Assembly (NCBI RefSeq): GCF_053078305.1 | Contig: NZ_CP166879.1 | Strand: one strand, 5' to 3' | Length of the DNA stretch: 64,000 bases | Part shown: one piece after another, positions 8,824 to 64,000 of the stretch | Layout: each line of letters opens with the position of its first letter | Position numbering within the stretch: position 1 is the stretch's first letter | Program-made: the position numbers and the translations under genes | The notes under the pieces: generated by a model | The model's input: only the letters and a program-made list of their open reading frames with translations | Told to the model about the DNA's origin: nothing | The model's database searches: none

Positions 8824-8826
8824 TTT

Positions 8827-33822: not shown

Positions 33823-33831
33823 GAAACTTTC

Positions 33832-38858: not shown

Positions 38859-38885
38859 AATAAATCACCTTACAGTTACAACAGG

Positions 38886-41107: not shown

Positions 41108-41338
41108 GTTTCTTCCTCGTGTTCTGTAACACAGGAAGAAGCGCTGGCGTAATTTTTGAAGAAAACGTTATCACACGAAGACGTGCAAGTTCACAACTCC
41201 CCGGGCGCCACAGAGAAAGTGGGAGCACACCCGGGTATCAGAACCATACAGAGAACGGCATACGTGACTGTCAATCACAGCGCAGATAATATCTGATATG
41301 ATGTCATTGTGACGACTGTACTTCATCAGAAACATTTA

Positions 41339-43676: not shown

Positions 43677-43883
43677 ATGAAGACCCCAGTTTCGCTGATG
43701 GATGACCAGATGGTCGACATGGCGTTTATCACTCAACTGACCGGCTTAACCGATAAGTGGTTTTATAAGCTCATCAAAGATGGTGCCTTTCCGGCCCCCA
43801 TCAAACTCGGCCGCAGCTCCCGATGGCTGAAAAGTGAAGTGGAAGCCTGGTTGCAGGCGCGTATTGCACAATCCCGTCCGTAA
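43677..43883 (+). CDS. alpA: AlpA-family prophage transcriptional regulator, 68 aa
   Basis: Characteristic AlpA sequence (LTGLTDKWFYKLIKDGAFPAPIKLGRSSRWLKSEVEAWL). Confidence 0.8.
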   Translation: MKTPVSLMDDQMVDMAFITQLTGLTDKWFYKLIKDGAFPAPIKLGRSSRWLKSEVEAWLQARIAQSRP

Positions 43884-43968
43884 TTACTGACCGTTATCCG
43901 TTCAACCGCAGCGAATACACTATCCGGCCTCCGGAGGCATTCTGCTGCGTGCTAAAGGAGAGAATATT

Positions 43969-44541
43969 ATGCAAAAACTTGAAAACCGGTGTGATCTGCT
44001 GCTAATTCAGCATCAGAAATGGATGGCAAGTGTAACCCGGTTTATTGTCGCTCATGGAATGGGCTCTCCGCATCTTCATGGTTATCACCGCCTGACCCTG
44101 GCTCACTTTTTTCTACCGGAAAAAGGCACCATCATCTCAGTGGCACCACAGGGACTCTATCAGGTCGTCAACCCGGGAACGCCACCGTTCATTCCTGCCA
44201 TTCAGGAAGGGTTAATGACCAGCATTCAGACCCATGAAATCATGCTGCTTACGCATTTTAATCTGGGCGGCGTTTTACTCAGTGAGCTACATCGTCTGGG
44301 CGAAAGCCGGCTGGCAAACAGGCTGAACAGTCTGCTCCGGCGTTTCGAAGATCGCGATCTCTACCACACGCTGATATGGCTGTGCTGGTATGATCTGATG
44401 TGTGCCCACTCCATGCAGCCCTGGACTGAAGAGTTAAAGCATAAATCACACACAGAGCTTGAAAGCTGGGCTGTGGCGCGCAAACGGGAAAAGCGCGAGC
44501 TTGAACTGATGATTGACGAGTATCTGTTATACGCCTGTTGA
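43969..44541 (+). CDS. Hypothetical protein, 190 aa
   Basis: ORF following alpA; no motif recognised. Confidence 0.4.
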   Translation: MQKLENRCDLLLIQHQKWMASVTRFIVAHGMGSPHLHGYHRLTLAHFFLPEKGTIISVAPQGLYQVVNPGTPPFIPAIQEGLMTSIQTHEIMLLTHFNLGGVLLSELHRLGESRLANRLNSLLRRFEDRDLYHTLIWLCWYDLMCAHSMQPWTEELKHKSHTELESWAVARKREKRELELMIDEYLLYAC

Positions 44542-46121
44542 TTCATAACGCTCCCGGGATTCCTTCCTCATCGTTGCACACAACCGGACGGCTATCTGTG
44601 GCAGTCCGCCAAATGACCCTCGCCGCATTTCGTTCTGCTGAAAACGGTACGTAGCCAGTGATACCGGAATTTCCGGAGAGGGTCGCAGGTATATTGCTTC
44701 TGTGCAATTGATGCTTATTTACATTGGATGTGGTTATTTCTGCATCCAATGCTATCGGAAAGAGATCAACCAGCAAATGGTTCCTCAAATCGTATTGATA
44801 TTTACCCGGTGCATTGAGCACCTCCATCTGACACTCCGTTCCCGCATCAAACGGCTGAACCGGAAAACGATTTGCTTTTCACGCTCCGTGGAAATTCACG
44901 AAAAAGTTATTGGGTCATTCATCGAAAAACACATGTTCTGCTGACTGGAGCCATCACCCGGAAATATACGTCAACTGAACAATAACGATTTTTTCTTTAT
45001 GGGATCCCATACACTTTCCCATACCCCTCTGAAAATCAGTCATCAACTCACCAACACATCTTCTGAAATCTGTATTAAACTTATTGCTTAAATAGATGAT
45101 ATAACACATCTTCCATTGCACGGAATCAGCGAAAACTGTCATTCTGGCAATCTTAACAAGATCATTTATCGGTTAATTTTATCAGTAAACAATGGAATAT
45201 CACACTGATAAAATGAACATTCAGGGTAAGATGATAAAATTCACATAAAAAATGCTGAAGATTATTTATTTCATGCAGATAAACGATAAAATACAAGAGA
45301 GTATATTTTTCAGTGTAAGAGTCAATCGTTCATCTCCACTGACGATCACGGTCAGCACATAAACAAAGTGAGTCCTCCTGCTTAGTCATTGCGTATCAGA
45401 AACTAAAAAACAAAAGATTCTGTAAACAACGTGACATTTTTTATGACATTTCCCGAATACAGATATATCAACAAACAGTAGTCAGCGTTGAATTAATAAG
45501 TTTTACAGGGCTATACGTATCTTATAAAACCACTCAACGACCATCATCACCTGACTATTTAGCGGGAGTATCATCTGTATAAATCCCTAAATAATAACAC
45601 CTGTTATTAAAATAAGAATGCTGTCAGCAGTAAATTATTAACATAACACCTGTCCACTCTATCTGTTCTTCTAACTCAACCGGCATCGAAAATATTGCCT
45701 GATTAGTGCATCATAGCCTTCTTTTTTCTTTCCCGACCATCAAAACAAATACAACATTTACAACCACACAATAAAACAAAACTAAAACATAAGATTAACA
45801 ACACCAATCAACAGGAAAACACTGAATATTGAGGTGCCCTGTAACCTGGAGAGCGCATACGGCGCATGTGATCAACACAGCCCATTCTTTTCTGTCATCC
45901 CCCAAATGCAGAACAAACAAGCATAACCTAATGAATATAAAATAAAATATTATTTTTCACCATCATAAAAACATCAATGTATCTTTATATAAAAACACTG
46001 ACAACATGACATAAACATTTAAAAACATAAACAAATCACAACAAAAACATTTGATAATCACTTAGTGACAAAATAAAATTGAGACGATTTTGTTATAAGA
46101 GAGGCGCCATGGAGTGAGATA

Positions 46122-47141
46122 ATGAATAACGAACAGATGCTTATCAAATGCAAAGATCCCCGTAAATGTCGGTTTTATGCTGAATATCTGAATCACAAAT
46201 ACCCCAATGAATTCCCTCAGTTTGCGCCTGACAACCCACAAAACTGTATCAGAAATGTTAATGCGTTTTTAAAAGAAAAGTATTGTAATACTTCAAACAA
46301 TTCTTTTGGTGTTTTTGGTTCGACTGCAGAAGAAGCTCTCAGCAAAGAAATTAATGAACTTGAAATTATTGCAGGGCAGGCAATACTGCCTGAAGAGAGT
46401 TTTCTCTGGTTGAAAACTGACGAACTTGCGACTTTCTTTACCTGGACTACTATTTATCTGTCGAAGGAAGACCATACAAATTTCCCGGAAATAAACCATA
46501 ATTCATCAGGGATAAAAAACGGAATTGAAGTCAGAAAAAGACGAACAGTTACCGATGAAACGTTAAATACTTACAAAAAAAGTAACCTTCCGGATAATCC
46601 ATCATCCCATAACGAACGAATAAAAGTAATCATTTTATATTTTGATTCCTGTCATTCTTTAATTAATAAAAATGCAAAAAGCATATACCTCGAGGAACTC
46701 AGGCAGACGTGGCTTAAAAATAAAAGCGCTTGTCAAAAGTTTAAGTGGCTCCTTCCTGACGATGATGAAATGTGTCAGTGGTTCTGGACAAGACTGAAAC
46801 AAAAACAGGATGAAACACATCCGGTACATAACCCGGTGACCCGGTGGTTCATACCATCTTCAACGAAAGAATATTATCTTGCCTCTCTCGTCGCCTTTGC
46901 TTTATGGAAAGAGGCACCTGATACCATTGAACTGTTCAGAACACGCATAAATCATGCCTGGCATCAAAAAAAACAAAAAGACAAATATCGGAATGATGGT
47001 AAAAAGGCTATTAATATACATATAAGAAGCAATGCGAAAGAAATGCTTGATGAACTCAGAACTGTTTACGGTCTGAGAACAGGAGAGTTTTTTGAAATGC
47101 TGATTACAGAAAAATATCTTGAACACAAGCGAAGGAAGTAA
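46122..47141 (+). CDS. Hypothetical protein, 339 aa, strongly AT-rich (Lys/Asn-rich)
   Basis: Long ORF after a noncoding AT-rich stretch of about 1.1 kb; foreign composition. Confidence 0.5.
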   Translation: MNNEQMLIKCKDPRKCRFYAEYLNHKYPNEFPQFAPDNPQNCIRNVNAFLKEKYCNTSNNSFGVFGSTAEEALSKEINELEIIAGQAILPEESFLWLKTDELATFFTWTTIYLSKEDHTNFPEINHNSSGIKNGIEVRKRRTVTDETLNTYKKSNLPDNPSSHNERIKVIILYFDSCHSLINKNAKSIYLEELRQTWLKNKSACQKFKWLLPDDDEMCQWFWTRLKQKQDETHPVHNPVTRWFIPSSTKEYYLASLVAFALWKEAPDTIELFRTRINHAWHQKKQKDKYRNDGKKAINIHIRSNAKEMLDELRTVYGLRTGEFFEMLITEKYLEHKRRK

Positions 47142-47250
47142 TTCATTACCTGTTACATTCTAAATAATCTCAGACAGATATTATCTCCGTGAATCCCCCG
47201 CCACCTTTCCGGTGCGCGGGGTTTTGTCTTTTTTCACCGGGAATACATGT

Positions 47251-48123
47251 ATGAATCCGTCTGATGCCATTGAGGCAATTGAAAAACCGCTCTCCTCCCT
47301 GCCTTACTCACTTTCCCGTCACATCCTGGAACATCTGCGCAAACTCACCAGCCACGAACCCGTGATTGGCATTATGGGGAAAAGCGGGGCCGGTAAATCC
47401 TCACTCTGTAATGCACTGTTTCAGGGGGAGGTCACCCCGGTCAGTGATGTTCACGCCGGCACCCGGGAAGTGCGGCGCTTCCGTCTGAGTGGCCATGGTC
47501 ACAACATGGTTATCACTGACCTGCCCGGGGTGGGTGAGAGCCGGGACAGGGATGCAGAGTATGAAGCCCTGTACCGTGACATTCTGCCTGAACTTGACCT
47601 GGTGCTGTGGCTGATTAAAGCCGATGACCGTGCCATGTCTGTGGATGAGTATTTCTGGCGACACATCCTGCACCAGGGACATCAGCAGGTGCTGTTTGTG
47701 GTGACACAGGCCGACAAAACGGAGCCCTGCCATGAATGGGATATGGCCGGTATTCAGCCTTCTCCCGCACAGGCACAGAATATTCGCGAAAAAACGGAGG
47801 CGGTATTCCGTCTGTTCCGGCCCGTACATCCGGTTGTGGCCGTATCGGCCCGCACCGGCTGGGAACTGGATACGCTGGTCAGTGCGCTCATGACAGCGCT
47901 TCCCGACCATGCCGCCAGTCCCCTGATGACCCGCCTGCAGGACGAGCTGCGCACGGAATCTGTCCGCTCTCAGGCCCGTGAACAGTTTACCGGTGCGGTG
48001 GACCGGATATTTGACACGGCGGAGAGCGTCTGTGTTGCCTCTGTTGCCCGTACGGTTCTGCGTGCCGTCCGTGACACGGTGGTCTCTGTTGCCCGCGCTG
48101 TATGGAACTGGATTTTCTTCTGA
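47251..48123 (+). CDS. yeeP: YeeP/YkfA/YfjP-family GTPase (50S ribosome-binding GTPase-like), about 290 aa
   Basis: P-loop GKSGAGKSSL, DLPG motif; conserved position upstream of agn43 in CP4-44-like modules. Start set at the first in-frame ATG with a plausible context. Confidence 0.7.
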   Translation: MNPSDAIEAIEKPLSSLPYSLSRHILEHLRKLTSHEPVIGIMGKSGAGKSSLCNALFQGEVTPVSDVHAGTREVRRFRLSGHGHNMVITDLPGVGESRDRDAEYEALYRDILPELDLVLWLIKADDRAMSVDEYFWRHILHQGHQQVLFVVTQADKTEPCHEWDMAGIQPSPAQAQNIREKTEAVFRLFRPVHPVVAVSARTGWELDTLVSALMTALPDHAASPLMTRLQDELRTESVRSQAREQFTGAVDRIFDTAESVCVASVARTVLRAVRDTVVSVARAVWNWIFF

Positions 48124-48241
48124 ACACTCTGCCAGGAAAATGCCTGATTACATTGCGTTAACCAACTGAAAACATGACACAAACACCTCATGCTCCTCCT
48201 GTTTCTCTTGCGTGACCGCCTTGCAATCAATAGAATAAAAC

Positions 48242-48277
48242 GATCGATAAAACAGATATCGATCGTTACTATCGATC
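48242..48277. promoter_or_regulatory. Three closely spaced GATC (Dam) sites in the agn43 upstream region: candidate OxyR/Dam phase-variation switch
   Basis: GATC at 48242, 48261 and 48274 within cgatcgataaaacagatatcgatcgttactatcgatcgtt, about 220 bp upstream of the agn43 ATG. Confidence 0.65.
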
Positions 48278-48494
48278 GTTTATAGTGGTTAATGGTCTGC
48301 GAAAAGGCAGTTGAATCTCTTCATCATGCAGAACGGAATTGCACAAAACGGACTGATACTTCTCTGGCGGATGAGAGAGGGGAAGCATTTATGTCCGGGA
48401 AAAACCACTGTATCTGACCATGCTGTTTTGTACCTGCCGGTATCCACATTTGTGGGTACCGGCTTTTTTATTCACCCTCTGTAAGGAAAAGCTG

Positions 48495-51400
48495 ATGAAA
48501 CGACATCTGAACACCAGCTACAGGCTGGTATGGAATCACATTACGGGCACCCTGGTGGTGGCCTCCGAACTGGCCCGCTCACGGGGAAAACGCGCCGGTG
48601 TGGCGGTTGCTCTGTCTCTTGCTACTGTCACGTCAGTCCCGGCACTGGCTGCTGACACGGTTGTTCAGGCAGGAGAAACCGTGAATGGCGGAACACTGGT
48701 AAACCATGACAACCAGTTTGTATCCGGAACAGCTGATGGCGTGACTGTCAGTACCGGGCTTGAGCTGGGGCCGGACAGTGACGAAAACACCGGCGGGCAA
48801 TGGATAAAAGCGGGTGGCACAGGCAGAAACACCACTGTCACCGCAAATGGTCGTCAGATTGTGCAGGCAGGAGGAACTGCCAGTGATACGGTTATTCGTG
48901 ACGGCGGGGGACAGAGCCTGAACGGGCTGGCGGTGAACACCACGCTGAATAACAGAGGCGAGCAGTGGGTTCATGAGGGCGGGGTTGCCACCGGTACAAT
49001 TATCAACCGCGACGGTTACCAGAGCGTTAAAAGTGGCGGGCTGGCAACAGGAACCATCATCAACACCGGCGCAGAAGGCGGCCCGGATTCTGACAACTCG
49101 TACACGGGTCAGAAGGTCCAGGGAACAGCAGAATCCACCACCATCAACAAAAATGGACGGCAGATTATCTTATTTTCCGGGATAGCCCGTGACACTCTCA
49201 TTTACGCAGGTGGTGACCAGTCGGTACACGGAAGGGCCCTGAATACCACACTGAATGGCGGTTACCAGTATGTGCACAAGGACGGACTTGCGCTGAACAC
49301 GGTAATTAACGAGGGGGGCTGGCAGGTTGTTAAGGCAGGTGGTGCTGTCGGTAACACCACCATAAATCAGAACGGTGAACTGAGAGTACATGCCGGCGGG
49401 GAAGCAACTGCAGTCACCCAGAACACGGGCGGTGCACTGGTTACCAGTACGGCTGCAACCGTTACCGGCATAAACCGCCTGGGAGCATTCTCCGTTGTGG
49501 CGGGTAAGGCTGATAATGTCGTACTGGAAAATGGCGGACGTCTGGATGTGCTGAGCGGACACACAGCCACTAATACCCGTGTGGATGATGGCGGAACGCT
49601 GGATGTCCGCAACGGTGGTGCCGCCACCACCGTATCCATGGGGAATGGCGGTGTACTGCTGGCCGATTCCGGGGCCGCTGTCAGTGGTACCCGGAGCGAC
49701 GGAAAGGCATTCAGTATCGGAGGCGGTCAGGCGGATGCCCTGATGCTGGAAAAAGGCAGTTCCTTCACACTGAACGCCGGTGATACGGCCACGGATACCA
49801 CGGTAAATGGCGGACTGTTCACCGCCAGAGGGGGCTCGCTGGCGGGCACCACCACGCTGAATAACGGTGCCACGCTTACCCTTTCCGGGAAAACGGTGAA
49901 TAACGATACCCTGACCATCCATGAAGGTGATGCACTCCTGCAGGGAGGCGCTCTTACCGGTAACGGCAGGGTGGAAAAATCAGGAAGTGGCACACTCACT
50001 GTCAGCAACACCACACTCATCCAGAAAACCGTCAACCTGAATGAAGGCACGCTGACGCTGAACGACAGTACCGTCACCACGGATGTCATCGCTCAGCGCG
50101 GCACGGCCCTGAAGCTGACCGGCAGCACAGTGCTGAACGGTGCCATTGACCCCACGAATGTCACCCTGACATCCGGTGCCACCTGGAATATCCCCGATAA
50201 CGCCACGGTGCAGTCGGTGGTGGATGACCTCAGCCATGCCGGACAGATTCATTTCACCTCCACCCGCACAGGGAAGTTCGTACCGGCAACCCTGAAAGTG
50301 AAAAACCTGAACGGGCAGAATGGCACCATCAGCCTGCGTGTACGCCCGGATATGGCACAGAACAATGCTGACAGACTGGTCATTGACGGCGGCAGGGCAA
50401 CCGGAAAAACCATCCTGAACATGGTGAACGCCGGCAACAGTGCGTCGGGGCTGGCGACCAGCGGTAAGGGTATTCAGGTGGTGGAAGCCATTAACGGTGC
50501 CACCACGGAGGAAGGGGCCTTTGTCCAGGGGAACAGGCTGCAGGCCGGGGCCTTTAACTACTCCCTCAACCGGGACAGTGATGAGAGCTGGTATCTGCGC
50601 AGTGAAAATGCTTATCGTGCAGAAGTCCCCCTGTATGCCTCCATGCTGACACAGGCAATGGACTATGACCGGATTCTGGCAGGCTCCCGCAGCCATCAGA
50701 CCGGTGTAAACGGTGAAAATAACAGCGTCCGTCTCAGCATTCAGGGCGGCCATCTCGGTCACGATAACAACGGCGGTATTGTCCGTGGGGCCACGCCGGA
50801 AAGCAGCGGCAGCTATGGCTTCGTCCGCCTGGAGGGTGACCTGCTGAGAACAGAGGTTGCCGGTATGTCTCTGACGACAGGGGTGTATGGTGCTGCAGGC
50901 CATTCTTCCGTTGATGTTAAGAATGATGACGGCTCCCGTGCCGGCACGGTCCGGGATGATGCCGGCAGTCTGGGCGGATACCTGAATCTGGTACACAACG
51001 CCTCCGGCCTGTGGGCTGACATTGTGGCCCAGGGAACCCGCCACAGCATGAAAGCGTCATCGGACAATAACGACTTCCGCGCCCGGGGCTGGGGCTGGCT
51101 GGGCTCACTGGAAACCGGTCTGCCCTTCAGTATCACTGACAATCTGATGCTGGAGCCGCAACTGCAGTACACCTGGCAGGGACTCTCCCTGGATGACGGC
51201 CAGGATAACGCCGGTTATGTGAAGTTCGGGCATGGCAGTGCACAACATGTGCGTGCCGGTTTCCGTCTGGGCAGCCACAACGATATGACCTTTGGTGAAG
51301 GCACCTCATCCCGTGACACCCTGCGCGGCAGTGCCAAACACAGTGTGCGTGAACTGCCGGTGAACTGGTGGGTACAGCCTTCTGTTATCCGCACCTTCAG

Positions 51401-51617
51401 CTCCCGGGGGGACATGAGCATGGGTACAGCCGCAGCCGGCAGTAACATGACGTTCTCACCGTCACAGAATGGTACGTCACTGGACCTGCAGGCCGGACTG
51501 GAAGCCCGTGTCCGGGAAAATATCACCCTGGGCGTTCAGGCTGGTTATGTCCACAGCGTCAGCGGCAGCAGCGCTGAAGGCTATAACGGTCAGGCCACGC
51601 TGAATGTGACCTTCTGA
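48495..51617 (+). CDS. flu: Antigen 43 autotransporter adhesin, about 1040 aa
   Basis: N-terminus MKRHLNTSYRLVWNHITGTLVVASELARSRG (extended signal peptide), passenger repeats, C-terminal beta-barrel ending ...NVTF. Confidence 0.85.
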   Translation: MKRHLNTSYRLVWNHITGTLVVASELARSRGKRAGVAVALSLATVTSVPALAADTVVQAGETVNGGTLVNHDNQFVSGTADGVTVSTGLELGPDSDENTGGQWIKAGGTGRNTTVTANGRQIVQAGGTASDTVIRDGGGQSLNGLAVNTTLNNRGEQWVHEGGVATGTIINRDGYQSVKSGGLATGTIINTGAEGGPDSDNSYTGQKVQGTAESTTINKNGRQIILFSGIARDTLIYAGGDQSVHGRALNTTLNGGYQYVHKDGLALNTVINEGGWQVVKAGGAVGNTTINQNGELRVHAGGEATAVTQNTGGALVTSTAATVTGINRLGAFSVVAGKADNVVLENGGRLDVLSGHTATNTRVDDGGTLDVRNGGAATTVSMGNGGVLLADSGAAVSGTRSDGKAFSIGGGQADALMLEKGSSFTLNAGDTATDTTVNGGLFTARGGSLAGTTTLNNGATLTLSGKTVNNDTLTIHEGDALLQGGALTGNGRVEKSGSGTLTVSNTTLIQKTVNLNEGTLTLNDSTVTTDVIAQRGTALKLTGSTVLNGAIDPTNVTLTSGATWNIPDNATVQSVVDDLSHAGQIHFTSTRTGKFVPATLKVKNLNGQNGTISLRVRPDMAQNNADRLVIDGGRATGKTILNMVNAGNSASGLATSGKGIQVVEAINGATTEEGAFVQGNRLQAGAFNYSLNRDSDESWYLRSENAYRAEVPLYASMLTQAMDYDRILAGSRSHQTGVNGENNSVRLSIQGGHLGHDNNGGIVRGATPESSGSYGFVRLEGDLLRTEVAGMSLTTGVYGAAGHSSVDVKNDDGSRAGTVRDDAGSLGGYLNLVHNASGLWADIVAQGTRHSMKASSDNNDFRARGWGWLGSLETGLPFSITDNLMLEPQLQYTWQGLSLDDGQDNAGYVKFGHGSAQHVRAGFRLGSHNDMTFGEGTSSRDTLRGSAKHSVRELPVNWWVQPSVIRTFSSRGDMSMGTAAAGSNMTFSPSQNGTSLDLQAGLEARVRENITLGVQAGYVHSVSGSSAEGYNGQATLNVTF

Positions 51618-51737
51618 CAGAACCATCGCCTCTCTGTGGTCCCGGTCATCATGATCGGGACCCGGACCGGCGCAACGGATATTCAACGCCACATTCGCTG
51701 GCATTAACAATAACATGATATTCATCACGGAGTGACT

Positions 51738-54254
51738 ATGTTACAGATAGTCGGCGCGCTGATCCTGCTGATCGCAGGATTTGCCATTCTTCGCCTTTTG
51801 TTCAGAGCATTAATCAGCACGGCTTCTGCGCTGGCAGGGCTCATATTGCTGTGTCTGTTCGGCCCGGCCTTACTGGCTGGCTATATCACCGAACGCATAA
51901 CCCGGTTGTTCCATATTCGCTGGCTGGCAGGCGTATTTCTGACGATTGCCGGAATGATCATCAGCTTCATGTGGGGACTTGATGGTAAACATATCGCGCT
52001 GGAGGCTCACACCTTTGACTCTGTGAAATTTATTCTGACCACCGCTCTCGCCGGTGGTCTGCTGGCTGTTCCCCTGCAGATCAAAAACATTCAGCAGAAC
52101 GGGATCACACCAGAAGATATCAGCAAGGAAATTAACGGGTATTACTGCTGTTTTTATACTGCCTTTTTCCTTATGGCGTGTTCTGCATGCGCACCATTGA
52201 TCGCGTTACAGTACGATATTTCACCGTCACTGATGTGGTGGGGCGGGTTGTTGTACTGGCTGGCTGCATTAGTGACGCTGCTATGGGCGGCCAGCCAGAT
52301 CCAGGCGCTGAAAAAACTGACCTGTGCCATCAGCCAGACACTGGAAGAACAACCGGTGCTCAACAGTAAATCGTGGCTGACCAGTTTGCAAAACGATTAC
52401 AGCCTTCCTGACTCACTGACGGAGCGCATCTGGCTGACGCTCATTTCACAACGGATTTCCCGGGGAGAGCTGAGGGAATTTGAACTGGCAGACGGAAACT
52501 GGTTACTGAACAATGCCTGGTATGAAAGAAACATGGCAGGGTTTAACGAACAGTTGAAAGAGAACCTGTCATTCACACCTGATGAACTGAAAACGCTCTT
52601 CCGGAACCGCCTGAATTTATCACCGGAAGCGAATGACGATTTTCTCGATCGTTGCCTGGACGGCGGTGACTGGTATCCCTTTTCAGAAGGTCGCCGTTTT
52701 GTATCATTCCATCACGTGGATGAGCTTCGTATCTGTGCCTCCTGCGGGCTGACAGAAGTACATCATGCCCCGGAAAATCATAAGCCGGATCCGGAATGGT
52801 ACTGCTCCTCTCTTTGTCGCGAAACAGAAACACTGTGTCAGGAAATTTATGAACGCCCTTACAACAGCTTTATTTCCGATGCAACGGCGAATGGTCTGAT
52901 TCTCATGAAACTGCCGGAAACCTGGAGTACAAATGAGAAAATGTTTGCTTCCGGAGGGCAGGGACATGGGTTTGCCGCTGAACGGGGAAACCATATTGTC
53001 GACAGAGTCCGTCTGAAAAACGCACGGATCCTCGGTGATAATAATGCCAGAAATGGAGCAGACAGACTGGTCAGCGGAACAGAAATCCAGACGAAATATT
53101 GTTCAACTGCAGCCCGTAGCGTCGGTGCGGCATTCGACGGACAAAACGGACAGTATCGTTACATGGGAAATAATGGCCCCATGCAACTGGAAGTCCCCCG
53201 TGATCAGTATGCCGGCGCTGTTGAAACCATGAGGAATAAGATCCGCGAAGGTAAAGTACCCGGTGTAACCGATCCCGCAGAAGCGTCCCGGCTGATTCGT
53301 CGGGGACATCTGACTTATACTCAGGCCCGTAATATCACCCGGTTCGGGACCATCGAATCGGTCACTTATGATATTGCCGAGGGGTCGGTTGTCAGTCTGG
53401 CGGCCGGAGGGATCAGTTTTGCCCTGACGGCATCGGTCTTCTGGCTCAGCACCGGCGAGCGCGATGCTGCCCTGCAGACAGCTGCTGTCCAGGCAGGAAA
53501 AACCTTCACCCGCACACTGGCTGTCTACGTCACAACCCAGCAACTCCACCGGCTCAGTGTTGTTCAGGGTATGCTGAAGCACATTGATTTTTCGACTGCC
53601 AGCCCGACTGTCCGACTGGCTCTTCAGAAGGGGACCGGTGCAGGAAATATCAGTGCCCTGAACAAAGTGATGAAGGGTACGCTGGTGACATCTCTGGCAC
53701 TGGTAGCTGTCACAACCGGCCCTGACATGATCAAAATGTTGCGGGGACGGATCTCCGGTACGCAGTTCATCAGGAATCTTGCCGTGGCATCTTCCGGTGT
53801 GGCAGGTGGAGCTGTCGGGTCAGTGGCGGGCGGGATACTGTTCAGTCCACTGGGACCATTTGGTGCACTGACAGGGCGTGTGGTTGGCGGTGTTCTGGGG
53901 GGAATGATTGCCTCCGCTGTATCAGGAAAAATTGCCGGAGCGCTGGTTGAAGAAGATCGCGTCAAAATTCTGGCAATGATTCAGGAGCAGGTGACATGGC
54001 TTGCCGGCAGTTTCCTGCTGACCGGACATGAGATTGAAAATCTGAACGAGAATCTGGCCCGTGTTATCGATCAGAATGCTCTGGAGATCATTTTCGCCGC
54101 CGGTATACAACAACGGGCCGCGACCAATATGTTAATCAAACCACTGGTGGTCAGTATCATCAGGCAACGCCCCGTCATGGAATATGATGCATCCCATCTC
54201 GGCAATATGGTTAACCGACTGGAAGAAGCATTACCCCCGGAGTTACCGGCATAA
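51738..54254 (+). CDS. YeeR-like inner-membrane protein (long form, about 838 aa)
   Basis: Several N-terminal TM helices; position after agn43 as in CP4-44-like modules; GGAG 6 nt before the ATG at 51738. Confidence 0.55.
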   Translation: MLQIVGALILLIAGFAILRLLFRALISTASALAGLILLCLFGPALLAGYITERITRLFHIRWLAGVFLTIAGMIISFMWGLDGKHIALEAHTFDSVKFILTTALAGGLLAVPLQIKNIQQNGITPEDISKEINGYYCCFYTAFFLMACSACAPLIALQYDISPSLMWWGGLLYWLAALVTLLWAASQIQALKKLTCAISQTLEEQPVLNSKSWLTSLQNDYSLPDSLTERIWLTLISQRISRGELREFELADGNWLLNNAWYERNMAGFNEQLKENLSFTPDELKTLFRNRLNLSPEANDDFLDRCLDGGDWYPFSEGRRFVSFHHVDELRICASCGLTEVHHAPENHKPDPEWYCSSLCRETETLCQEIYERPYNSFISDATANGLILMKLPETWSTNEKMFASGGQGHGFAAERGNHIVDRVRLKNARILGDNNARNGADRLVSGTEIQTKYCSTAARSVGAAFDGQNGQYRYMGNNGPMQLEVPRDQYAGAVETMRNKIREGKVPGVTDPAEASRLIRRGHLTYTQARNITRFGTIESVTYDIAEGSVVSLAAGGISFALTASVFWLSTGERDAALQTAAVQAGKTFTRTLAVYVTTQQLHRLSVVQGMLKHIDFSTASPTVRLALQKGTGAGNISALNKVMKGTLVTSLALVAVTTGPDMIKMLRGRISGTQFIRNLAVASSGVAGGAVGSVAGGILFSPLGPFGALTGRVVGGVLGGMIASAVSGKIAGALVEEDRVKILAMIQEQVTWLAGSFLLTGHEIENLNENLARVIDQNALEIIFAAGIQQRAATNMLIKPLVVSIIRQRPVMEYDASHLGNMVNRLEEALPPELPA

Positions 54255-54329
54255 CGGCTATTCTGCGCCTTTTACGCTTTATCACCTGATTTGTCAGTGT
54301 CATCGTCATGACTCAGAGAGGTAAATACC

Positions 54330-54785
54330 ATGATTCACCTGTTCAAAACCTGCATGATTACCGCCTTCATTCTGGGGTTAACGTGGTCTGCCCCACTCCG
54401 GGCACAGGATCAACGTTACATCAGTATACGCAATACAGATACGATATGGCTCCCGGGAAATATTTGTGCTTACCAGTTCCGGCTGGATAATGGCGGAAAC
54501 GATGAAGGATTTGGCCCCCTCACCATCACTCTGCAACTCAAAGACAAATATGGTCAGACGCTGGTGACCAGAAAAATGGAAACGGAAGCTTTTGGTGACA
54601 GTAATGCCACGCGAACCACAGACGCATTTCTGGAAACGGAGTGCGTGGAAAATGTCGCCACAACCGAAATCATTAAAGCAACTGAAGAAAGTAACGGCCA
54701 TCGTGTCAGTCTGCCGTTATCGGTTTTCAATCCCCAGGACTACCATCCACTGCTGATTACCGTTTCCGGAAAAAACGTTAACTGA
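54330..54785 (+). CDS. Hypothetical secreted protein, 151 aa
   Basis: N-terminal signal peptide (MIHLFKTCMITAFILGLTWSAPLRA). Confidence 0.45.
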   Translation: MIHLFKTCMITAFILGLTWSAPLRAQDQRYISIRNTDTIWLPGNICAYQFRLDNGGNDEGFGPLTITLQLKDKYGQTLVTRKMETEAFGDSNATRTTDAFLETECVENVATTEIIKATEESNGHRVSLPLSVFNPQDYHPLLITVSGKNVN

Positions 54786-54810
54786 TCCCTGAAGTCAGTT
54801 TCATGCTTCA

Positions 54811-54846
54811 GCCTCTGTCACAACGCGTGGCAGAGGCTTTTTATTT
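54811..54846 (+). terminator. Rho-independent terminator
   Basis: Hairpin gcctctg-(loop)-cagaggc followed by TTTTTATTTA. Confidence 0.65.
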
Positions 54847-54863
54847 ATCAGGAGAAAACAGAT

Positions 54864-55097
54864 ATGCCGGGTTACACAGAGTATGTCCTGGCTGAAGGAT
54901 CTTTCTCATACGGGCAGGCGGTTGCTGTCATAACCGCTTACCGCAATGTGTTTATCCAGGATGACCCGGGAATGCATTTCCGTCGGGTTATCCGCAACGC
55001 GGAAGGTCAGCGACGCTGGCGCTGCCGGAATTCTGAACCCGATGCCGGAAAGGTGCTTAATACGCGGCTCGCCAGTGACGGTCTTCTCAGACAATAA
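54864..55097 (+). CDS. Small conserved island protein, 77 aa (DUF905-like, recalled)
   Basis: Position before the yafZ-like gene as in K-12 cryptic-prophage modules. Confidence 0.4.
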
Positions 55098-55196
55098 ACG
55101 TCATTCATTTCACCCATCAGGCCGCGTCTTCTCCGGGAGACGTGGCTTTTTCATTTATTACACCAGTAAATCTTAACCACCGATAAGGAGCAAATT

Positions 55197-56015
55197 ATGC
55201 GACTAGCCAGTCGTTTTGGTTATGCGAACCAGATACGCCGTGACCGTCCGCTGACACACGAAGAACTGATGCACTATGTGCCGGGGATTTTCGGGGAAGA
55301 TAAACACACGTCCCGAAGCCAGAACTATACGTACATCCCCACCATCACCGTACTGGAAAGCCTGCAGCGGGAAGGCTTTCAGCCATTCTTCGCCTGCCAG
55401 ACCCGTGTGCGCGACCCGGGCCGCCGGGGATACACAAAACACATGCTGCGTCTGCGGCGGGCCGGAGAGATAAACGGAGAACATGTCCCTGAAATTATTC
55501 TGCTCAACTCTCATGACGGTACCTCCAGCTACCAGATGCTGCCGGGTTACTTCAGGTTCGTCTGCCAGAACGGATGCGTCTGTGGTCAGTCTCTGGGGGA
55601 AGTGCGTGTTCCGCACCGGGGAAATGTGGTGGACAGAGTCATTGAAGGGGCTTACGAGGTGGTGGGGGTTTTTGACCGGATTGAGGAAAAGCGTGATGCC
55701 ATGCAGTCGCTGATTCTGCCGCCACCGGCACGCCAGGCGCTGGCACAGGCGGCACTGACTTACCGTTATGGTGACGAACATCAGCCCGTCACCACCGCCG
55801 ACATTCTGACGCCACGACGCCGGGAGGATTACGGTAAGGACCTGTGGAGTGCTTATCAGACCATTCAGGAGAATATGCTGAAAGGCGGAATTTCAGGTCG
55901 CAGCGCTAAAGGAAAACGTATCCATACCCGTGCCATTCACAGCATTGACACTGACATTAAGCTCAACCGCGCATTGTGGGTGATGGCGGAAACCCTGCTG
56001 GAGAGCCTGCGCTGA
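55197..56015 (+). CDS. YafZ/YfjQ-like protein (DUF932 family), 272 aa
   Basis: Strong similarity to the recalled YafZ sequence (MRLASRFGYANQIRRDRPLTHEELMHYVP...). Confidence 0.7.
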   Translation: MRLASRFGYANQIRRDRPLTHEELMHYVPGIFGEDKHTSRSQNYTYIPTITVLESLQREGFQPFFACQTRVRDPGRRGYTKHMLRLRRAGEINGEHVPEIILLNSHDGTSSYQMLPGYFRFVCQNGCVCGQSLGEVRVPHRGNVVDRVIEGAYEVVGVFDRIEEKRDAMQSLILPPPARQALAQAALTYRYGDEHQPVTTADILTPRRREDYGKDLWSAYQTIQENMLKGGISGRSAKGKRIHTRAIHSIDTDIKLNRALWVMAETLLESLR

Positions 56016-56069
56016 TTCAGCCATTACCCTGAAAACCACGCATTTATTTGTCCTTTAAGGAGTCATTTC

Positions 56070-56555
56070 ATGAAAACCATTTCACATAATTCCACCACAT
56101 CTTCTGTTTCCGTAACCGCTGCATCAGGGAATGACCAGCCTCAGTTGGTTGCCACCCTCGTCCCTGATGAACAGCGCATCAGCTTCTGGCCGCAGCACTT
56201 TGGCCTCATTCCACAGTGGGTGACCCTGGAGCCCCGTGTCTTCGGCTGGATGGACCGTCTGTGTGAAGACTACTGCGGTGGTATCTGGAATCTGTACACC
56301 CTGAACAACGGCGGGGCATTTATGGCACCCGAACCGGATGACGATGATGACGAAACATGGGTACTGTTCAATGCCATGAACGGTAACCGCGCTGAAATGA
56401 GTCCGGAAGCTGCCGGCATTGCTGCCTGTCTGATGACGTACAGTCATCATGCCTGTCGTACGGAGTGTTATGCCATGACGGTCCATTATTACCGGCTGCG
56501 GGATTACGCCCTGCAGCATCCGGAATGCAGCGCCATTATGCGCATCATCGACTGA
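56070..56555 (+). CDS. Antirestriction protein (YfjX/YafX/KlcA-like), 161 aa
   Basis: Acidic stretch EPDDDDDETW and conserved order before the radC-like gene. Confidence 0.6.
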   Translation: MKTISHNSTTSSVSVTAASGNDQPQLVATLVPDEQRISFWPQHFGLIPQWVTLEPRVFGWMDRLCEDYCGGIWNLYTLNNGGAFMAPEPDDDDDETWVLFNAMNGNRAEMSPEAAGIAACLMTYSHHACRTECYAMTVHYYRLRDYALQHPECSAIMRIID

Positions 56556-56570
56556 ATGGAGAGAAGTACA

Positions 56571-57047
56571 ATGCAACAGCTTTCCTTTCTGCCCGGAGAG
56601 ATGACGCCCGGCGAGCGCAGCCTCATTCAACGGGCCCTGAAAACCCTGGACCGCCATCTTCATGAACCCGGCGTGGCCTTCACCTCCACCCGTGCGGCAC
56701 GAGAATGGCTGATTCTGAACATGGCGGGACTGGAGCGTGAAGAGTTCCGGGTGCTGTATCTGAACAACCAGAATCAGCTGATTGCCGGTGAAACCCTCTT
56801 CACCGGCACCATCAACCGCACGGAAGTCCATCCCCGTGAAGTGATTAAACGCGCCCTGTATCACAATGCCGCTGCTGTGGTGCTGGCACACAATCACCCG
56901 TCCGGTGAAGTCACACCCAGCAAGGCAGACCGCCTTATCACGGAACGTCTGGTACAGGCACTGGGCCTGGTGGATATCCGGGTGCCGGACCATCTGATAG
57001 TCGGTGGCAGCCAGGTTTTCTCCTTTGCCGAACATGGTCTGCTTTAA
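56571..57047 (+). CDS. RadC-like JAB-domain protein (YeeS/YkfG/YfjY-like), about 158 aa
   Basis: JAMM motif region (HNHPSGEVTPSKAD); start set at MQQLSF. Confidence 0.7.
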   Translation: MQQLSFLPGEMTPGERSLIQRALKTLDRHLHEPGVAFTSTRAAREWLILNMAGLEREEFRVLYLNNQNQLIAGETLFTGTINRTEVHPREVIKRALYHNAAAVVLAHNHPSGEVTPSKADRLITERLVQALGLVDIRVPDHLIVGGSQVFSFAEHGLL

Positions 57048-57109
57048 CCCGTCACAACCACATCACACCTGTTTTCACTTTTATCTTCTGTCTTCAGAGG
57101 TATCCCACT

Positions 57110-57331
57110 ATGAAAATCATCACCCGTGGCGAAGCCATGCGTATTCACCGTCAGCATCCGGCATCCCGTCTTTTTCCGTTCTGTACCGGCAAATACCGCT
57201 GGCACGGCAGTGCTGAAGCGTATACCGGTCGTGAAGTGCAGGATATTCCCGGTGTGCTGGCCGTGTTTGCAGAACGCCGTAAGGACAGTTTTGGTCCGTA
57301 TGTCCGGCTGATGAGCGTCACCCTGAACTGA
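57110..57331 (+). CDS. YeeT/YkfH-like protein (DUF987), 73 aa
   Basis: Conserved small ORF preceding the antitoxin gene. Confidence 0.6.
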   Translation: MKIITRGEAMRIHRQHPASRLFPFCTGKYRWHGSAEAYTGREVQDIPGVLAVFAERRKDSFGPYVRLMSVTLN

Positions 57332-57493
57332 TGTTCCGTCACCCGGAAAACGAGTACGACTGGCTGAGCTCAGACGCCGCTGTGGATGAGGTCCTGCTCA
57401 TCAACGAATACACCTTTACCGAAGCCGGTCTGCGCGCCGGCTGACCCGTCATCGTTAAACTATCATTCACCGATTTTCTGTGAGGATTTTATC

Positions 57494-57862
57494 GTGTCAG
57501 ACACACTTTCCGGGACAACGCATCCCGATGACAATGACGACCATCCCTGGTGGGGACTACCCTGCACAGTGACGCCCTGTTTCGGCGCCCGTCTGGTGCA
57601 GGAGGGTAACCGCCTGCATTACCTTGCCGACCGCGCCGGTATCAGAGGCCTGTTCAGCGATGCAGATGCGTACCACCTGGACCAGGCCTTTCCGCTGCTG
57701 ATGAAACAACTGGAACTCATGCTCACCAGCGGTGAACTGAATCCCCGCCATCAGCATACCGTCACGCTGTATGCAAAAGGTCTGACCTGCAAAGCTGACA
57801 CTCTCGGTAGCGGTGGTTACGTTTATCTGGCTGTTTATCCGACGCCCGAAACGAAAAAGTAA
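57494..57862 (+). CDS. cbeA: CbeA/YeeU-family type IV antitoxin, about 122 aa (GTG start)
   Basis: [43 protein letters not shown]... matches recalled YeeU; the track ORF is an upstream extension. Confidence 0.8.
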
Positions 57863-57951
57863 ACCACCGGAATAACCTTCTGCTCCGGCCTGGTGCTTTC
57901 ACCACGCCACTTTTCCATTTTTCATCTCTGCATATCAGGAAAACCTTCAGT

Positions 57952-58326
57952 ATGAAAACATTACCCGATACACACGTACGGGAGGCATCGAGCTGCCCGT
58001 CTCCCGTCACCATCTGGCAGACTCTGCTCTCCCGACTACTGGGCCAGCATTACGGCCTTACACTGAATGACACACCGTTCGCCGATGAACGTGTGATTGA
58101 GCAGCATATTGAAGCTGGCATTTCACTGTGTGATGCGGTGAATTTTCTCGTGGAAAAATACGCGCTGGTGCGTACCGACCAGCCGGGATTCAGCACTTGT
58201 CCCCGCTCTCAGTTAATAAACAGTATTGATATCCTCCGGGCTCGCAGGGCGACCGGCCTGATGACCCGCGACAATTACAGAACGGTAAATAACATTACCC
58301 TGGGTAAGCATCCGGAGAAACGATGA
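57952..58326 (+). CDS. cbtA: CbtA/YeeV-family type IV toxin (cytoskeleton-targeting), 124 aa
   Basis: Matches recalled YeeV sequence (…[41 protein letters not shown]…). Confidence 0.8.
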
Positions 58327-58811
58327 AACTTTCCCTGATGCTGGAAGCCGACAGAATTAATGTGCAGGCACTGAACATGGGGCGAATTGTCGTTGACGTC
58401 GATGGTGTTAATCTCACTGAACTGATTAACAAGGTCGCTGAAAACGGTTATTCACTCCGCGTGGTGGAGGAATCCGACCAACAGTCAACCTGCACACTAC
58501 CACCGTTTGCAACCCTTGCCGGCATACGCTGCAGTACCGCACATATCACGGAAAAGGATAACGCCTGGCTGTACTCGCTGTCGCATCAGACCAGTGACGT
58601 TGGTGAATCAGAATGGATTCATTTCACAGGTAGCGGATATCTGTTACGTACCGATGCGTGGTCATATCCGGTTCTGCGGCTTAAACGCCTGGGGCTGTCA
58701 AAAACGTTCCGTCGTCTGGTTATCACACTTACCCGACGTTATGGCGTCAGTCTCATTCATCTGGATGCCAGCGCTGAATGCCTGCCGGGTTTACCCACTT
58801 TCAACTGGTAA
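58323..58811 (+). CDS. YeeW-like hypothetical protein, 162 aa
   Basis: ATG overlaps the cbtA stop (ATGA); conserved position. Confidence 0.45.
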
Positions 58812-58822
58812 CCAGGAACAAC

Positions 58823-59020
58823 ATGAAATCATTAACCACGGAAACAGCACTGGATATTCTGATTGCGTGGCTGCAGGACAATATCGACTGCGAATCGGGA
58901 ATTATCTTTGACAACGATGAGGATAAAACGGATTCGGCAGCACTGCTGCCCTGCATTGAACAGGCGAGGGAGGATATCCATACCCTGCGCCAGGTGCAGC
59001 TTCTGCACCAGAACCAGTGA
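58823..59020 (+). CDS. Hypothetical small protein, about 65 aa
   Basis: ORF from MKSLTTETALD; the track's longer form starts in the previous gene. Confidence 0.3.
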   Translation: MKSLTTETALDILIAWLQDNIDCESGIIFDNDEDKTDSAALLPCIEQAREDIHTLRQVQLLHQNQ

Positions 59021-59104
59021 ATATTACTCACCATACTTCATTCCACTGACGCCAGCCTGAACAGGGCTGGCGTTTTCATTTATCTGCAAAAAGGAATATC
59101 GATT

Positions 59105-59953
59105 ATGTCTGAACTCACAGCCTCCCGTCCGGAAGTGGTCAACGGACATACGGACGTTATCTGCTCAACCTCAGTCAGCCACATTCTGGCTGTACGAAAG
59201 AGTACACTGTTGCAAATCGACATACTTATCCGGCAACTGGCTGAAATCTCAGCAATGACAGAAAGTATTGGCGGTAAAACTGCTCTGGACTGGGCCATGA
59301 AACAGGATTTTCGCTGCGGCTGCTGGCTGACTGAGAAACCGGAAACCGCAATGAAAGCCATTACCCGCAACCTTGACCGTGAAATCTGGCGTGACCTGAT
59401 GCAACGTTCCGGGATGCTGTCATTAATGGATGCACAGGCACGTGATACATGGTACCGGTCACTGGAGTACGATAATTTTCCGGAAATCAGCGAAGCGAAC
59501 ATTCTGGGCACGTTTGAACAACTGCATCAGAATAAAGATGAGGTGTTTGAGCGAGGAGTCATCAACGTCTTCAGGGGACTGAGCTGGAATTACAAAACCA
59601 ACTCCCCCTGTAAATTTGGCAGTAAAATTATCGTCAACAACCTGGTGAGGTGGGACAGATGGGGATTGCATCTTATCACCGGGCAACAGGCAGATCGACT
59701 CGCCGACCTGGAAAGAATGCTACACCTGTTCAGCGGCAAACCGATCCCCGACAGCCGGGAAAATATCATCATTCGGCTGGATGATCACATCCGCTCCGTT
59801 CAGGGCAAAGTGTGCTATGAAGATGAGATGTTCAACATCAGATACTTTAAGAAGGGCTCCGCACACATCACGTTCAGGAAACCAGAACTGGTTGATCGGC
59901 TAAATGATATTATTGCGAAACATTATGCGGGAAAAGTATCTTCTTCAGTATAG
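59105..59953 (+). CDS. Hypothetical protein, 282 aa (DUF4942-like, recalled as a common island-terminal gene)
   Basis: Long ORF; last island gene before the ulaE junction. Confidence 0.5.
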   Translation: MSELTASRPEVVNGHTDVICSTSVSHILAVRKSTLLQIDILIRQLAEISAMTESIGGKTALDWAMKQDFRCGCWLTEKPETAMKAITRNLDREIWRDLMQRSGMLSLMDAQARDTWYRSLEYDNFPEISEANILGTFEQLHQNKDEVFERGVINVFRGLSWNYKTNSPCKFGSKIIVNNLVRWDRWGLHLITGQQADRLADLERMLHLFSGKPIPDSRENIIIRLDDHIRSVQGKVCYEDEMFNIRYFKKGSAHITFRKPELVDRLNDIIAKHYAGKVSSSV

Positions 59954-60162
59954 ACTTATATATCACAGGTATTGTGTCTCGTCCGGAACAAGACAGGTAG
60001 GTATGCTGCATTCACTGAACCATTACAGAGAATATTTCAACAGAGTTCAATATACCTCCATGTATAACAACTACACCTTGGGGGCTATATTGGGGGCTAT
60101 TTATAGGGAGGTGTTTAAATATATACTTATTATTCAATAATATAGGTTGATTAAGTTCATCC

Positions 60163-60215
60163 CCGGCGGGGAGCGCTTTTTCATAGATGCCAAGCGGGAT
60201 TTGTTTGGACAACAT
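60163..60215 (-). pseudogene. ulaE: ulaE 5' fragment (first 18 codons: MLSKQIPLGIYEKALPAG) truncated by the island junction
   Basis: Starts 10 bp after the ulaD stop; matches the recalled UlaE N-terminus, then diverges into island sequence. Confidence 0.6.
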
Positions 60216-60224
60216 ATCCGCTCC

Positions 60225-60875
60225 TTAGCCCCACAGTTCAGCGATGGAACGTTTGAACTGACGTGCGGCTTCCACCGGAGAAGCGGCATCACGGATACTA
60301 CGGCCCGCGATAAAGACGTGAATCGGAATACCCTTGAACAGCGGCAGATCTTCCAGCGCCAGGCCTCCGGTGACGGTCACTTTGAAGCCCATATCGGAAA
60401 GACGTTTGATCGCGGTGATATCTGCTTCGCCCCACGCCACGCCTGCGGCCTGCGCATCACGGCTGCGGTGATAAACCACCTGCTGAATGCCTGCATCGCG
60501 CCACTGCTGCGCCTGTTCCCAGGTCCAGTAACCGGTCAGTTCGATCTGCACGTCGCCGTTAAACTCTTTTGCCACGTCCAGCGCGCCTTTGGCGGTGTTG
60601 ATATCCGCACAGCAAATTACCGTCACCCAGTCAGCGTTGGCTTCGAAGCACATACGCGAAAGGATTTTGCCTGCATCGGCAATTTTGGCGTCTGCCAGTA
60701 CGATTTTGTGCGGGTAGAGCGCTTTCAGGTCACGAACCGCACGCACGCCTTCGCCCACGCACAGAATGGTGCCCACTTCGATAATGTCGACTTCTTCGGC
60801 AATCAGGCGAGTGGTTTCGTAGGCGCTATCCATAGTCTGGTTGTCCAGCGCGACTTGCAACATCGGTAATGACAT
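60225..60875 (-). CDS. ulaD: 3-keto-L-gulonate-6-phosphate decarboxylase, 216 aa
   Basis: Sequence from [19 protein letters not shown] matches recalled UlaD; start chosen at that Met rather than the track's longer ORF. Confidence 0.8.
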
Positions 60876-60888
60876 GTTCAATTCCTTC

Positions 60889-61353
60889 TTAAGCTGCCGC
60901 GTTGGTGCGGTCAATGAGATCCAGTACTTCCTGCTCGGTACGGCAGGAGCGTAAACGGTCAAAATTCTCTTCATCTTCAAACAGGTTGACGATCTGCATG
61001 ATGCCCACTTCCTGGTGAGTATTGGCATCGACCGCCGCCATGGTGATGAGGATATCCACCGGATCGTTGTCGTCGTGGTTAAATTCCAGCGGCTTTTTCA
61101 GCGTTACCAGAGAGAAACCGGTTTTCTTAACACCCTCTTCCGGCCGCCCGTGCGGCATCGCCAGCCCCGGAGCGATAACGAAATAAGGGCCAAACTGTTC
61201 CACGCCATCCAGAATCGCCTGGTAATAGCGCGGCTCGACAACGTCCGCCGCCACCAGCAGATCGACGCCGATTTTCACCGCGTCCTGCCAGGTTTCAGCT
61301 TCAGCCTGCAGGCGGATGGATTTATTTACAGCCAGCGAATCACGTAATTTCAT
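60889..61353 (-). CDS. ulaC: Ascorbate-specific PTS enzyme IIA, 154 aa
   Basis: Size, PTS EIIA-type sequence and operon position. Confidence 0.75.
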
Positions 61354-61362
61354 GGCGCGTCC

Positions 61363-61668
61363 TTACTTCACATCCTGCGGGAAATGCTCTTTGATCACTT
61401 CCAGCAGTTTCGGGCCAAAGTCAGCAGGAGAGAGCATGTTGCGCACGCCAACCACGTATTTGTTGCCGGTCACGGTGATTTCGCCCGCAATGTGCGTAGA
61501 AGCGATGATGATATCCGCGCCGCTCAACTCGCTTTTGTATTCGCCAACCGCGCAGCTGTTTACCGTGTGGTCAATGTTTGATTGGGTTAAAAACTGGTCC
61601 ACTTTCATCTTCATGATCATGGAACTGCCTTGTCCGTTGCCACACACAGCCAGAATACGTACGGTCAT
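61363..61668 (-). CDS. ulaB: Ascorbate-specific PTS enzyme IIB, 101 aa
   Basis: [16 protein letters not shown] (phospho-cysteine loop); operon position. Confidence 0.75.
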
Positions 61669-61683
61669 AATCAAAACTCCTTA

Positions 61684-63138
<1,455 letters not shown>

Positions 63139-63435: not shown

Positions 63436-64000
63436 ATGAGTAAAGTGAAAAGTATCACCCGTGAATCCTGGATCCTGAGCACTTTCCCGGAGTGGGGTAG
63501 CTGGTTGAATGAAGAAATTGAACAAGAGCAGGTAGCTCCTGGTACATTCGCGATGTGGTGGCTCGGTTGTACCGGGATCTGGCTGAAATCGGAAGGCGGT
63601 ACCAACGTCTGCGTCGATTTTTGGTGCGGTACTGGCAAACAAAGTCACGGTAACCCGCTGATGAAACAGGGTCACCAGATGCAGCGTATGGCTGGCGTGA
63701 AAAAACTGCAGCCGAACCTGCGCACTACGCCGTTTGTTCTTGATCCATTTGCTATTCGCCAGATCGACGCCGTCCTGGCGACTCACGATCACAACGATCA
63801 TATCGACGTAAACGTCGCTGCTGCCGTGATGCAGAACTGCGCTGATGACGTACCGTTTATCGGACCGAAAACCTGCGTGGATTTATGGATCGGCTGGGGC
63901 GTGCCGAAAGAACGTTGCATCGTGGTTAAACCGGGCGACGTGGTGAAAGTCAAAGACATTGAAATTCATGCGCTTGACGCCTTCGACCGTACTGCACTGA
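63436..64000 (+). CDS. ulaG: L-ascorbate-6-phosphate lactonase (metallo-beta-lactamase fold), 5' partial, runs off the window
   Basis: [23 protein letters not shown]...; HDHNDH-type metal motif; divergent from ulaA as in the known operon layout. Confidence 0.75.

Follow-up and report, generated by a model that had tools for sequence, protein, structure and literature searches.

Why does ulaE break off after its eighteenth codon in the 64,000-nucleotide stretch of DNA analysed here (the window), and what became of the rest of the gene? The initial annotation attributed the break to an IS-mediated deletion or rearrangement rather than to site-specific integration. Comparison with K-12 and with complete Escherichia coli genomes leads us to a different account, in which 59954-60225 is very probably the attR junction of an island some 74 kb long, brought in through conservative site-specific recombination by a P4-type tyrosine integrase.

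Alignment to K-12 (NC_000913 4415000-4427000) places the ula genes on the minus strand of the window, and window positions 59801-60900, covering ulaD and the start of ulaE, match with 734 of 741 identities. The homology stops at window position 60160, which corresponds to nucleotide 56 of ulaE, that is, 18 codons and 2 nt. The split of ulaE after codon 18 had therefore been read correctly from the letters, as had the 18-codon peptide, MLSKQIPLGIYEKALPAG, which stands exactly as called and whose frame continues into island DNA. The divergence had been put at about 60163; the junction itself is real and its true position lies 3 nt away. The description of the remaining ula genes as intact holds for ulaA, ulaB, ulaC and ulaD (Table 1). 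The exception is ulaG, which is cut by the end of the window, so its intactness cannot be claimed from the window. The chimeric reading frame that crosses the junction is labelled as a hypothetical protein in several genomes and is probably a by-product of the insertion. Searches of the 64-kb window found no tRNA genes, and no K-12-matching sequence for the remainder of ulaE or for ulaF. The left part of the window was considered as the place of the other junction and rejected, since it holds no K-12 ulaE or ulaF sequence and no second copy of the core described below.

Table 1. Features of the island and of the interrupted ula operon in the window
Feature	Position	Strand	Remarks
Island body inside the window	1..60159	+	left ~13.7 kb of the island lies outside the window
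AlpA-family protein, 68 aa	43677..43883	+	Pfam PF05930, E=5e-9
DUF4942 gene	59105..59953	+	last gene of the island
attR arm, 206 bp	59954..60159	+	island terminus, from the DUF4942 stop codon to the core
Chimeric ORF, 67 codons	60012..60215	-	ulaE codons 1-18 fused to island DNA
Motif ATTTCAACAGA	60034..60044	+	also in the integrase-proximal arm
Tandem pair TGGGGGCTA-N3-TGGGGGCTA	60079..60099	+	12-bp spacing; candidate arm-type integrase-binding sites
att core copy at attR	60160..60173	-	CTCCCCGCCGGGGA, ulaE nt 43-56
ulaE 5' stub	60160..60215	-	18 codons + 2 nt, identical to K-12
ulaD-ulaC-ulaB-ulaA block	60225..63081	-	intact; own promoter region kept
ulaD	60225..60875	-	no internal stops; 215/216 identical to K-12 protein
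ulaC	60889..61353	-	no internal stops; 151/154 identical to K-12 protein
ulaB	61363..61668	-	no internal stops; 101/101 identical to K-12 protein
ulaA	61684..63081	-	no internal stops; 464/465 identical to K-12 protein
ulaG	63436..64000	+	first 188 of 354 codons, then window end

Relatives show where the rest of the operon lies, namely at the island's opposite end. In NT1W22 the series rplI-rpsR-priB-rpsF-yjfY-ulaF-'ulaE leads to a 393-aa tyrosine integrase; some 58 kb of cargo separate the integrase from DUF4942, which is followed by the ulaE stub and by ulaD. The order rplI-rpsF-yjfY-ulaF-'ulaE / int ... DUF4942 / ulaE stub-ulaD is common to NT1W22, GPEC1176 and CE0007a. The remainder of ulaE, together with an intact ulaF, lies at the far end in every relative examined, which bears out the earlier suggestion that the two genes had been displaced from ulaABCD. 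The reciprocal junction ('ulaE / integrase) occurs in 63 complete E. coli genomes, a count equal to that of the window-type junction. At the integrase end of NT1W22, K-12 homology resumes at ulaE nucleotide 43; as it ends at nucleotide 56 on the other side, a 14-bp direct repeat flanks the island. A large chromosomal inversion ending in ulaE, suggested by a ula-hflK block that seemed reversed relative to K-12, was also considered and rejected, because the region from rplI to hflK is collinear around the island.

No complete E. coli genome is identical to the window. The closest is GPEC1176, which is collinear with it at 99.1-100% identity, interrupted only by 13.9 kb inserted in the window and by an IS2 that GPEC1176 carries. 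In that genome the 'ulaE / integrase junction lies about 13.7 kb to the left of the position matching window base 1. Given this collinearity and the position of the junction, we infer that the island measures about 74 kb and that its integrase end falls just outside the window. The absence of an integrase and of a tRNA at the boundary, as originally described, thus holds for the window, with the integrase located beyond it. The genome from which the window comes would share the GPEC1176-type left end, where these ~13.7 kb carry the integrase, a two-component system, a uhpC-like gene and an ABC iron transporter.

The integrase contains Arm-DNA-bind_3, Phage_int_M and Phage_integrase domains, and its sequence shows RTGE, HGFRH and a C-terminal Y. 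Against the NCBIfam P4-type model NF007246 (PRK09692 integrase) it scores 254 bits, under the cut-off of 434. In relatives with the same junction, the gene for this arm-binding-domain tyrosine recombinase adjoins one island end. The opposite end is occupied by a terminal CP4-type module (DUF932, antirestriction, RadC/JAB, DUF987, CbeA/CbtA, DUF5983, DUF957 and DUF4942). The AlpA-family protein encoded within the island is a candidate excisionase or recombination directionality factor.

The two ends of the island are defined by one short sequence. CTCCCCGCCGGGGA is present as a single copy in the 64-kb window and as a single copy at the empty site in K-12; in relatives it stands at both island ends as the 14-bp direct repeat, so that the island is bounded by a duplicated att core. 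Inside this repeat lies a 13-bp palindrome, TCCCCG-N-CGGGGA (60160-60172). In the 24 junctions that we read, the break always falls at the palindrome edges, and the central base of the core follows the polarity of the chromosome in all 24. One core copy in DLI.5a (NZ_CP103972.1, locus position 301) carries a C-to-T change (TCTCCGCCGGGGA), which might be an obstacle to excision there. No excised-circle or tandem attP junction was found in the 5,426 complete genomes or in metagenome contigs, and assemblies seldom capture circles. As a separate observation, the palindrome followed by GCGCTTTTTC (window 60160-60182, plus strand) scores as a hairpin like that of an intrinsic terminator for transcripts that exit the island; this hairpin arises from the junction itself.

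The 206-bp arm next to the core is specific to this site. At a coverage of at least 80% it occurs in 64 of 5,426 genomes, in all 64 at ulaE junctions, and diverged partial matches occur in 26 further genomes. The DUF4942 gene beside it, unlike the arm, is common at other island sites.

The arm also contains the short direct repeat that had been noticed near the boundary. The repeat is real: TGGGGGCTA occurs at 60079 and at 60091, and these are exactly two copies in 64 kb, compared with 0.5 expected by chance. In relatives the pair recurs upstream of the integrase ATG, on the same strand, with the same 12-bp spacing and with the first copy at about -39. A diverged variant of the island, 89% identical over the 'ulaE-integrase query, keeps the TGGGGGCTA pair, and its ~60 bp between the repeats and the core are no longer alignable. 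Among plasmids, 174 places match part of the 'ulaE plus integrase query, and 177 records have a best match of 80-90% identity. Upstream tandem motifs, counted where the 120 nt before the integrase gene contain exact copies of an 8-mer at a spacing of 10-14 nt, were found at 25 of 79 related integrase loci of other species vs. 25 of 1,120 control windows; the 25 motif-bearing loci mostly show a 12-nt spacing near -50 and are mostly of the G-rich TGGGGG(C/T)AT type. Because the pairs are present in both arms, the arrangement recurs in the integrase family and the enzyme has an arm-binding domain, an arm-type reading is the most economical, and the tandem repeat is most likely a binding site for the N-terminal Arm-DNA-binding domain of the integrase. 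A likeness between K-12 ulaE nucleotides 22-33 (CTTGGCATCTAT, codons LGIY, ending 9 nt upstream of the core) and window 60077-60088 (CTTGGGGGCTAT), which agree at 9 of 12 positions, is probably a coincidence (a rough estimate of chance after scanning is ~0.03).

We propose the following course of events. The integrase encoded at the island's left end would recognise CTCCCCGCCGGGGA in ulaE as its attB, and the 206-bp island terminus would serve as an integrase-specific arm. Integration would duplicate the 14-bp core and leave two products: on one side ulaABCD with the 18-codon stub of ulaE, and on the other a promoter-less ulaE body without a start codon, followed by an intact ulaF. Catalysis of the insertion would fall to the 393-aa integrase.

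The island does not always lie the same way around. In some genomes the arm is joined to the ulaE body, not to the stub, and the island is co-directional with ulaE-ulaF (orientation B, as opposed to orientation A in the window). The window-type arm stands in orientation A in 57 genomes and in orientation B in 7, which together make up all 64 genomes with the arm. When the reciprocal junction expected for orientation B (ulaD-stub / integrase arm) was built as a synthetic sequence and searched for, the identical 7 genomes were retrieved, with 2 more of the diverged variant. With the variant included the totals are 63 A and 9 B genomes, so that orientation is assigned in 72 of 90 arm-bearing genomes, the other 18 being diverged partial arm matches. 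The same integrase protein occurs in both arrangements: WP_021513337.1 is found in NT1W22, GPEC1176 and CE0007a (A) and in CE0026a and PK-F-10122 (B), and WP_053287687.1 in CS5L (A) and AR_0085 (B).

The comparison of CE0007a (A) with CE0026a (B) is particularly informative. Their island ends are identical over 1601 of 1601 and 1600 of 1600 nt, whereas their chromosomal flanks are 96.3% and 97.9% identical, with differences right up to the core. One island is therefore present in two backgrounds and in opposite orientations, and on these alignments its ends show recent horizontal movement into the same site. We tentatively suggest that the palindromic core, in which polarity resides in the central base only, allows one P4-type integrase to insert the island either way, and that the orientation then decides the fate of ulaEF; we hold this to be a little short of an even chance. 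A simple heteroduplex model of wrong-way recombination was rejected, since it predicts two unlike cores, and in all 10 islands for which both ends were read the two cores have the same central base. Because the central base follows the chromosome and the repeats are perfect, either two attP isoforms one base apart or directed repair would be needed.

A different origin for orientation A would be an integrase-mediated inversion in situ of an island in orientation B, or the import of the segment by homologous recombination. The core is palindromic but for its central base, which means that attL and attR can pair in inverted alignment; the sharing of one integrase protein between the orientations fits as well, and orientation B mirrors the layout of tRNA-targeting relatives. 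Yet the shared ends and differing flanks of CE0007a and CE0026a favour separate integrations over an inversion inside one lineage or a joint transfer of the flanks, A is the commoner arrangement, and inversion across a central mismatch should give the unlike cores that none of the 10 islands displays. We consider such an origin unlikely. Inversion in situ as the sole source of B is likewise weakened by the identical islands in different chromosomal backgrounds. JNEC-KY203 (NZ_AP045179.1) has its attL and attR junctions at 4361856 and 4475056, some 113 kb from each other and on different strands, a layout that points to another rearrangement in which the island took part.

Returning to insertion by the integrase, the first interpretation of the locus can be weighed against it. 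A deletion or rearrangement mediated by an IS element, removing most of ulaE and ulaF, would agree with a boundary that shows neither integrase nor tRNA inside the window and with the many IS elements of the island. However, there is no IS end at the breakpoint (none in 59954-60160), where the DUF4942 gene is followed directly by the arm specific to ulaE junctions; the supposedly deleted genes survive at the other end of the island; and the target is repeated on both sides, with an identical breakpoint in every junction read. This leaves the deletion with hardly any probability, and the associated claim that site-specific integration was not involved fails on the tyrosine integrase and the direct repeat of the target seen in relatives. 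Finally, an assembly artefact or chimeric join is virtually out of the question, because the ulaD-side junction (DUF4942 gene, 206 bp, ulaE stub, ulaD), counted where at least 80% of the query is spanned, recurs in 63 of 5,426 complete and independent E. coli genomes, with single uninterrupted alignments in at least 40 among the matches listed.

What does the island do to the genes that it separates? In orientation A the ulaE body is preceded by TAA TAA ATC and a divergently oriented integrase gene, no ATG, GTG or TTG start is present at its new 5' end, and it lies about 74 kb away from the ulaA promoter region. The idea that, in orientation A, ulaE receives a replacement 5' end from the island was considered and is ruled out by the same TAA TAA ATC; the PGAP call of 271 aa starts at ATC. 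In orientation B the arm contributes a start codon in frame with ulaE, either a TTG that gives 274 aa or, as the diverged variant has it, an ATG that gives 303 aa. An example of the latter is AR_0085, where an ATG ORF (locus 6107..7018) runs through the TGGGGGCTA repeats (...LGATLGAI...) into ulaE, yielding a 303-aa fusion that is annotated as an epimerase; the homologous ORF in the window (59904..60140, plus strand) ends 20 nt short of the core.

In both orientations the segment LGIYEKA, conserved between UlaE and its paralogue SgbU (60% identical), is lost from the ulaE body. Structures of UlaE have been solved (3CQH and related entries), and a single-sequence AlphaFold2 model of the protein, at a mean pLDDT of 43, was too poor to place the segment. 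UlaE converts L-xylulose-5-P to L-ribulose-5-P. Impaired anaerobic fermentation of L-ascorbate in island strains is a plausible prediction, and the caveat raised at the outset, that paralogues of the yiaQRS type may compensate, is a reasonable one.

The cargo inside the window is varied. An Iha siderophore receptor/adhesin gene (693..2783) is followed by an IS3-family element and then by a lactate permease gene with lutABC-like genes (5072..9525). On the minus strand at 10753..17258, a 515-aa ORF matches PADLOC MkoB (E=1e-61) and a 1652-aa ORF matches MkoA (E=0), forming a Mokosh-type anti-phage defence pair. At about 17466-17621 (GPEC1176 2952946-2953101), a 156-nt internal fragment of an integrase pseudogene is annotated in relatives beside IS remnants, and its presence there suggests that the island is a composite of earlier elements. 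The 13.9-kb segment absent from GPEC1176 (21584-35438) carries an IS66-family transposase (21737..23320) and a 3037-aa filamentous-haemagglutinin-type ORF (24166..33279, minus strand). Next to these, a 579-aa ORF (33832..35571, minus strand) has no NCBIfam match, and it and the 3037-aa ORF are possibly a two-partner secretion or contact-dependent inhibition module. Further along, after a GTPase gene, an Rfam IS102 RNA (48240..48476) lies directly upstream of an Ag43 autotransporter gene (48420..51617).

Taken in this way, an apparent gene loss becomes a defined event, the splitting of the ula operon, at one fixed site of 14 bp, by a mobile island. Such an island is carried by between 1.3% (72 genomes, both junction types) and 1.7% (90 genomes, any arm match) of complete E. 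coli genomes, and among the cargo of ulaE-site islands are adhesins, iron uptake and phage defence. In practice, strains with the island are predicted to be poor L-ascorbate fermenters. If the island does insert either way, orientation A, the case in the window, would silence ulaEF, and orientation B would put ulaEF downstream of co-directional island genes with a start codon from the island. The locus would also offer a natural case of a tRNA-type integrase shifted to a protein-coding target, and one in which the symmetry of the core permits both orientations, useful for understanding how asymmetry of the overlap region sets the directionality of tyrosine recombinases.

Among known elements, the P4/CP4-57-type islands at pheV, pheU, leuX, selC, argU and other sites are close in construction. 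They share the integrase architecture (Arm-DNA-bind_3, central and catalytic domains), the G-rich tandem motif upstream of int, the terminal module ending in DUF4942, an AlpA-type gene and short flanking direct repeats. Their target is the 3' end of a tRNA or tmRNA gene, whereas the island described here uses codons 15-19 of the protein-coding ulaE; orientation A, unlike insertion at tRNA sites, does not restore the target gene. In a survey of 80 relatives, one genome per species, identity to the nearest integrases of other species does not exceed 55%, and a tRNA gene lies close by, nearly always just upstream of int, in 67 of the 80. The ulaE target therefore departs from the norm of the integrase family, and none of these 80 nearest relatives has an integrase at ulaE or with the core.

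The 5' end of a protein-coding gene is also the target of DusA-associated islands and prophages, which, as Farrugia and colleagues reportedly described in 2015, integrate into the 5' end of dusA and supply a replacement that keeps the gene intact. The ulaE island differs in what it supplies: orientation A gives TAA TAA ATC, and orientation B gives only a TTG or ATG start without LGIYEKA. Another tyrosine-recombinase island at a short palindrome within a protein-coding gene is PAISt of Streptomyces turgidiscabies, where crossover takes place at the 8-bp palindrome TTCATGAA in bacA (PMC4057263). Unlike the ulaE site, that of PAISt lies at the 3' end of its target gene, in an island with duplicated gene ends, and the word 'orientation' is absent from the paper (PMC4057263).

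Closest of all are the islands already placed at ula. The passages of Biggel et al. considered here give six loci at which papGII+ PAIs integrate, one of them the ula operon (ulaE-ulaD), and report an insertion-site-specific integrase for them (Nat Commun 2020, PMC7686366), and those of Alvarez-Fraga et al. name an island of ST131 clade B GI-S21EC-ulaE (mBio 2022, PMC8764528). Both the arm and the 'ulaE / integrase junction (attL) described here were found in the genome of S21EC as well. As far as these passages go, the published islands insert between ulaD and the ulaE body, as in the window, and carry afa/dr or papGII, in contrast to the Iha, lactate utilisation, Mokosh-type, filamentous-haemagglutinin-type and Ag43 genes of the window. 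The same passages of PMC7686366 and PMC8764528 give no description of the core sequence, of the arms or of the two orientations, and the literature that we searched yielded no report of two-way insertion of this E. coli element. The ulaE insertion site is thus already published, the island in the window is a new member with its own cargo, and the palindromic core with its two orientations adds a modestly novel detail.
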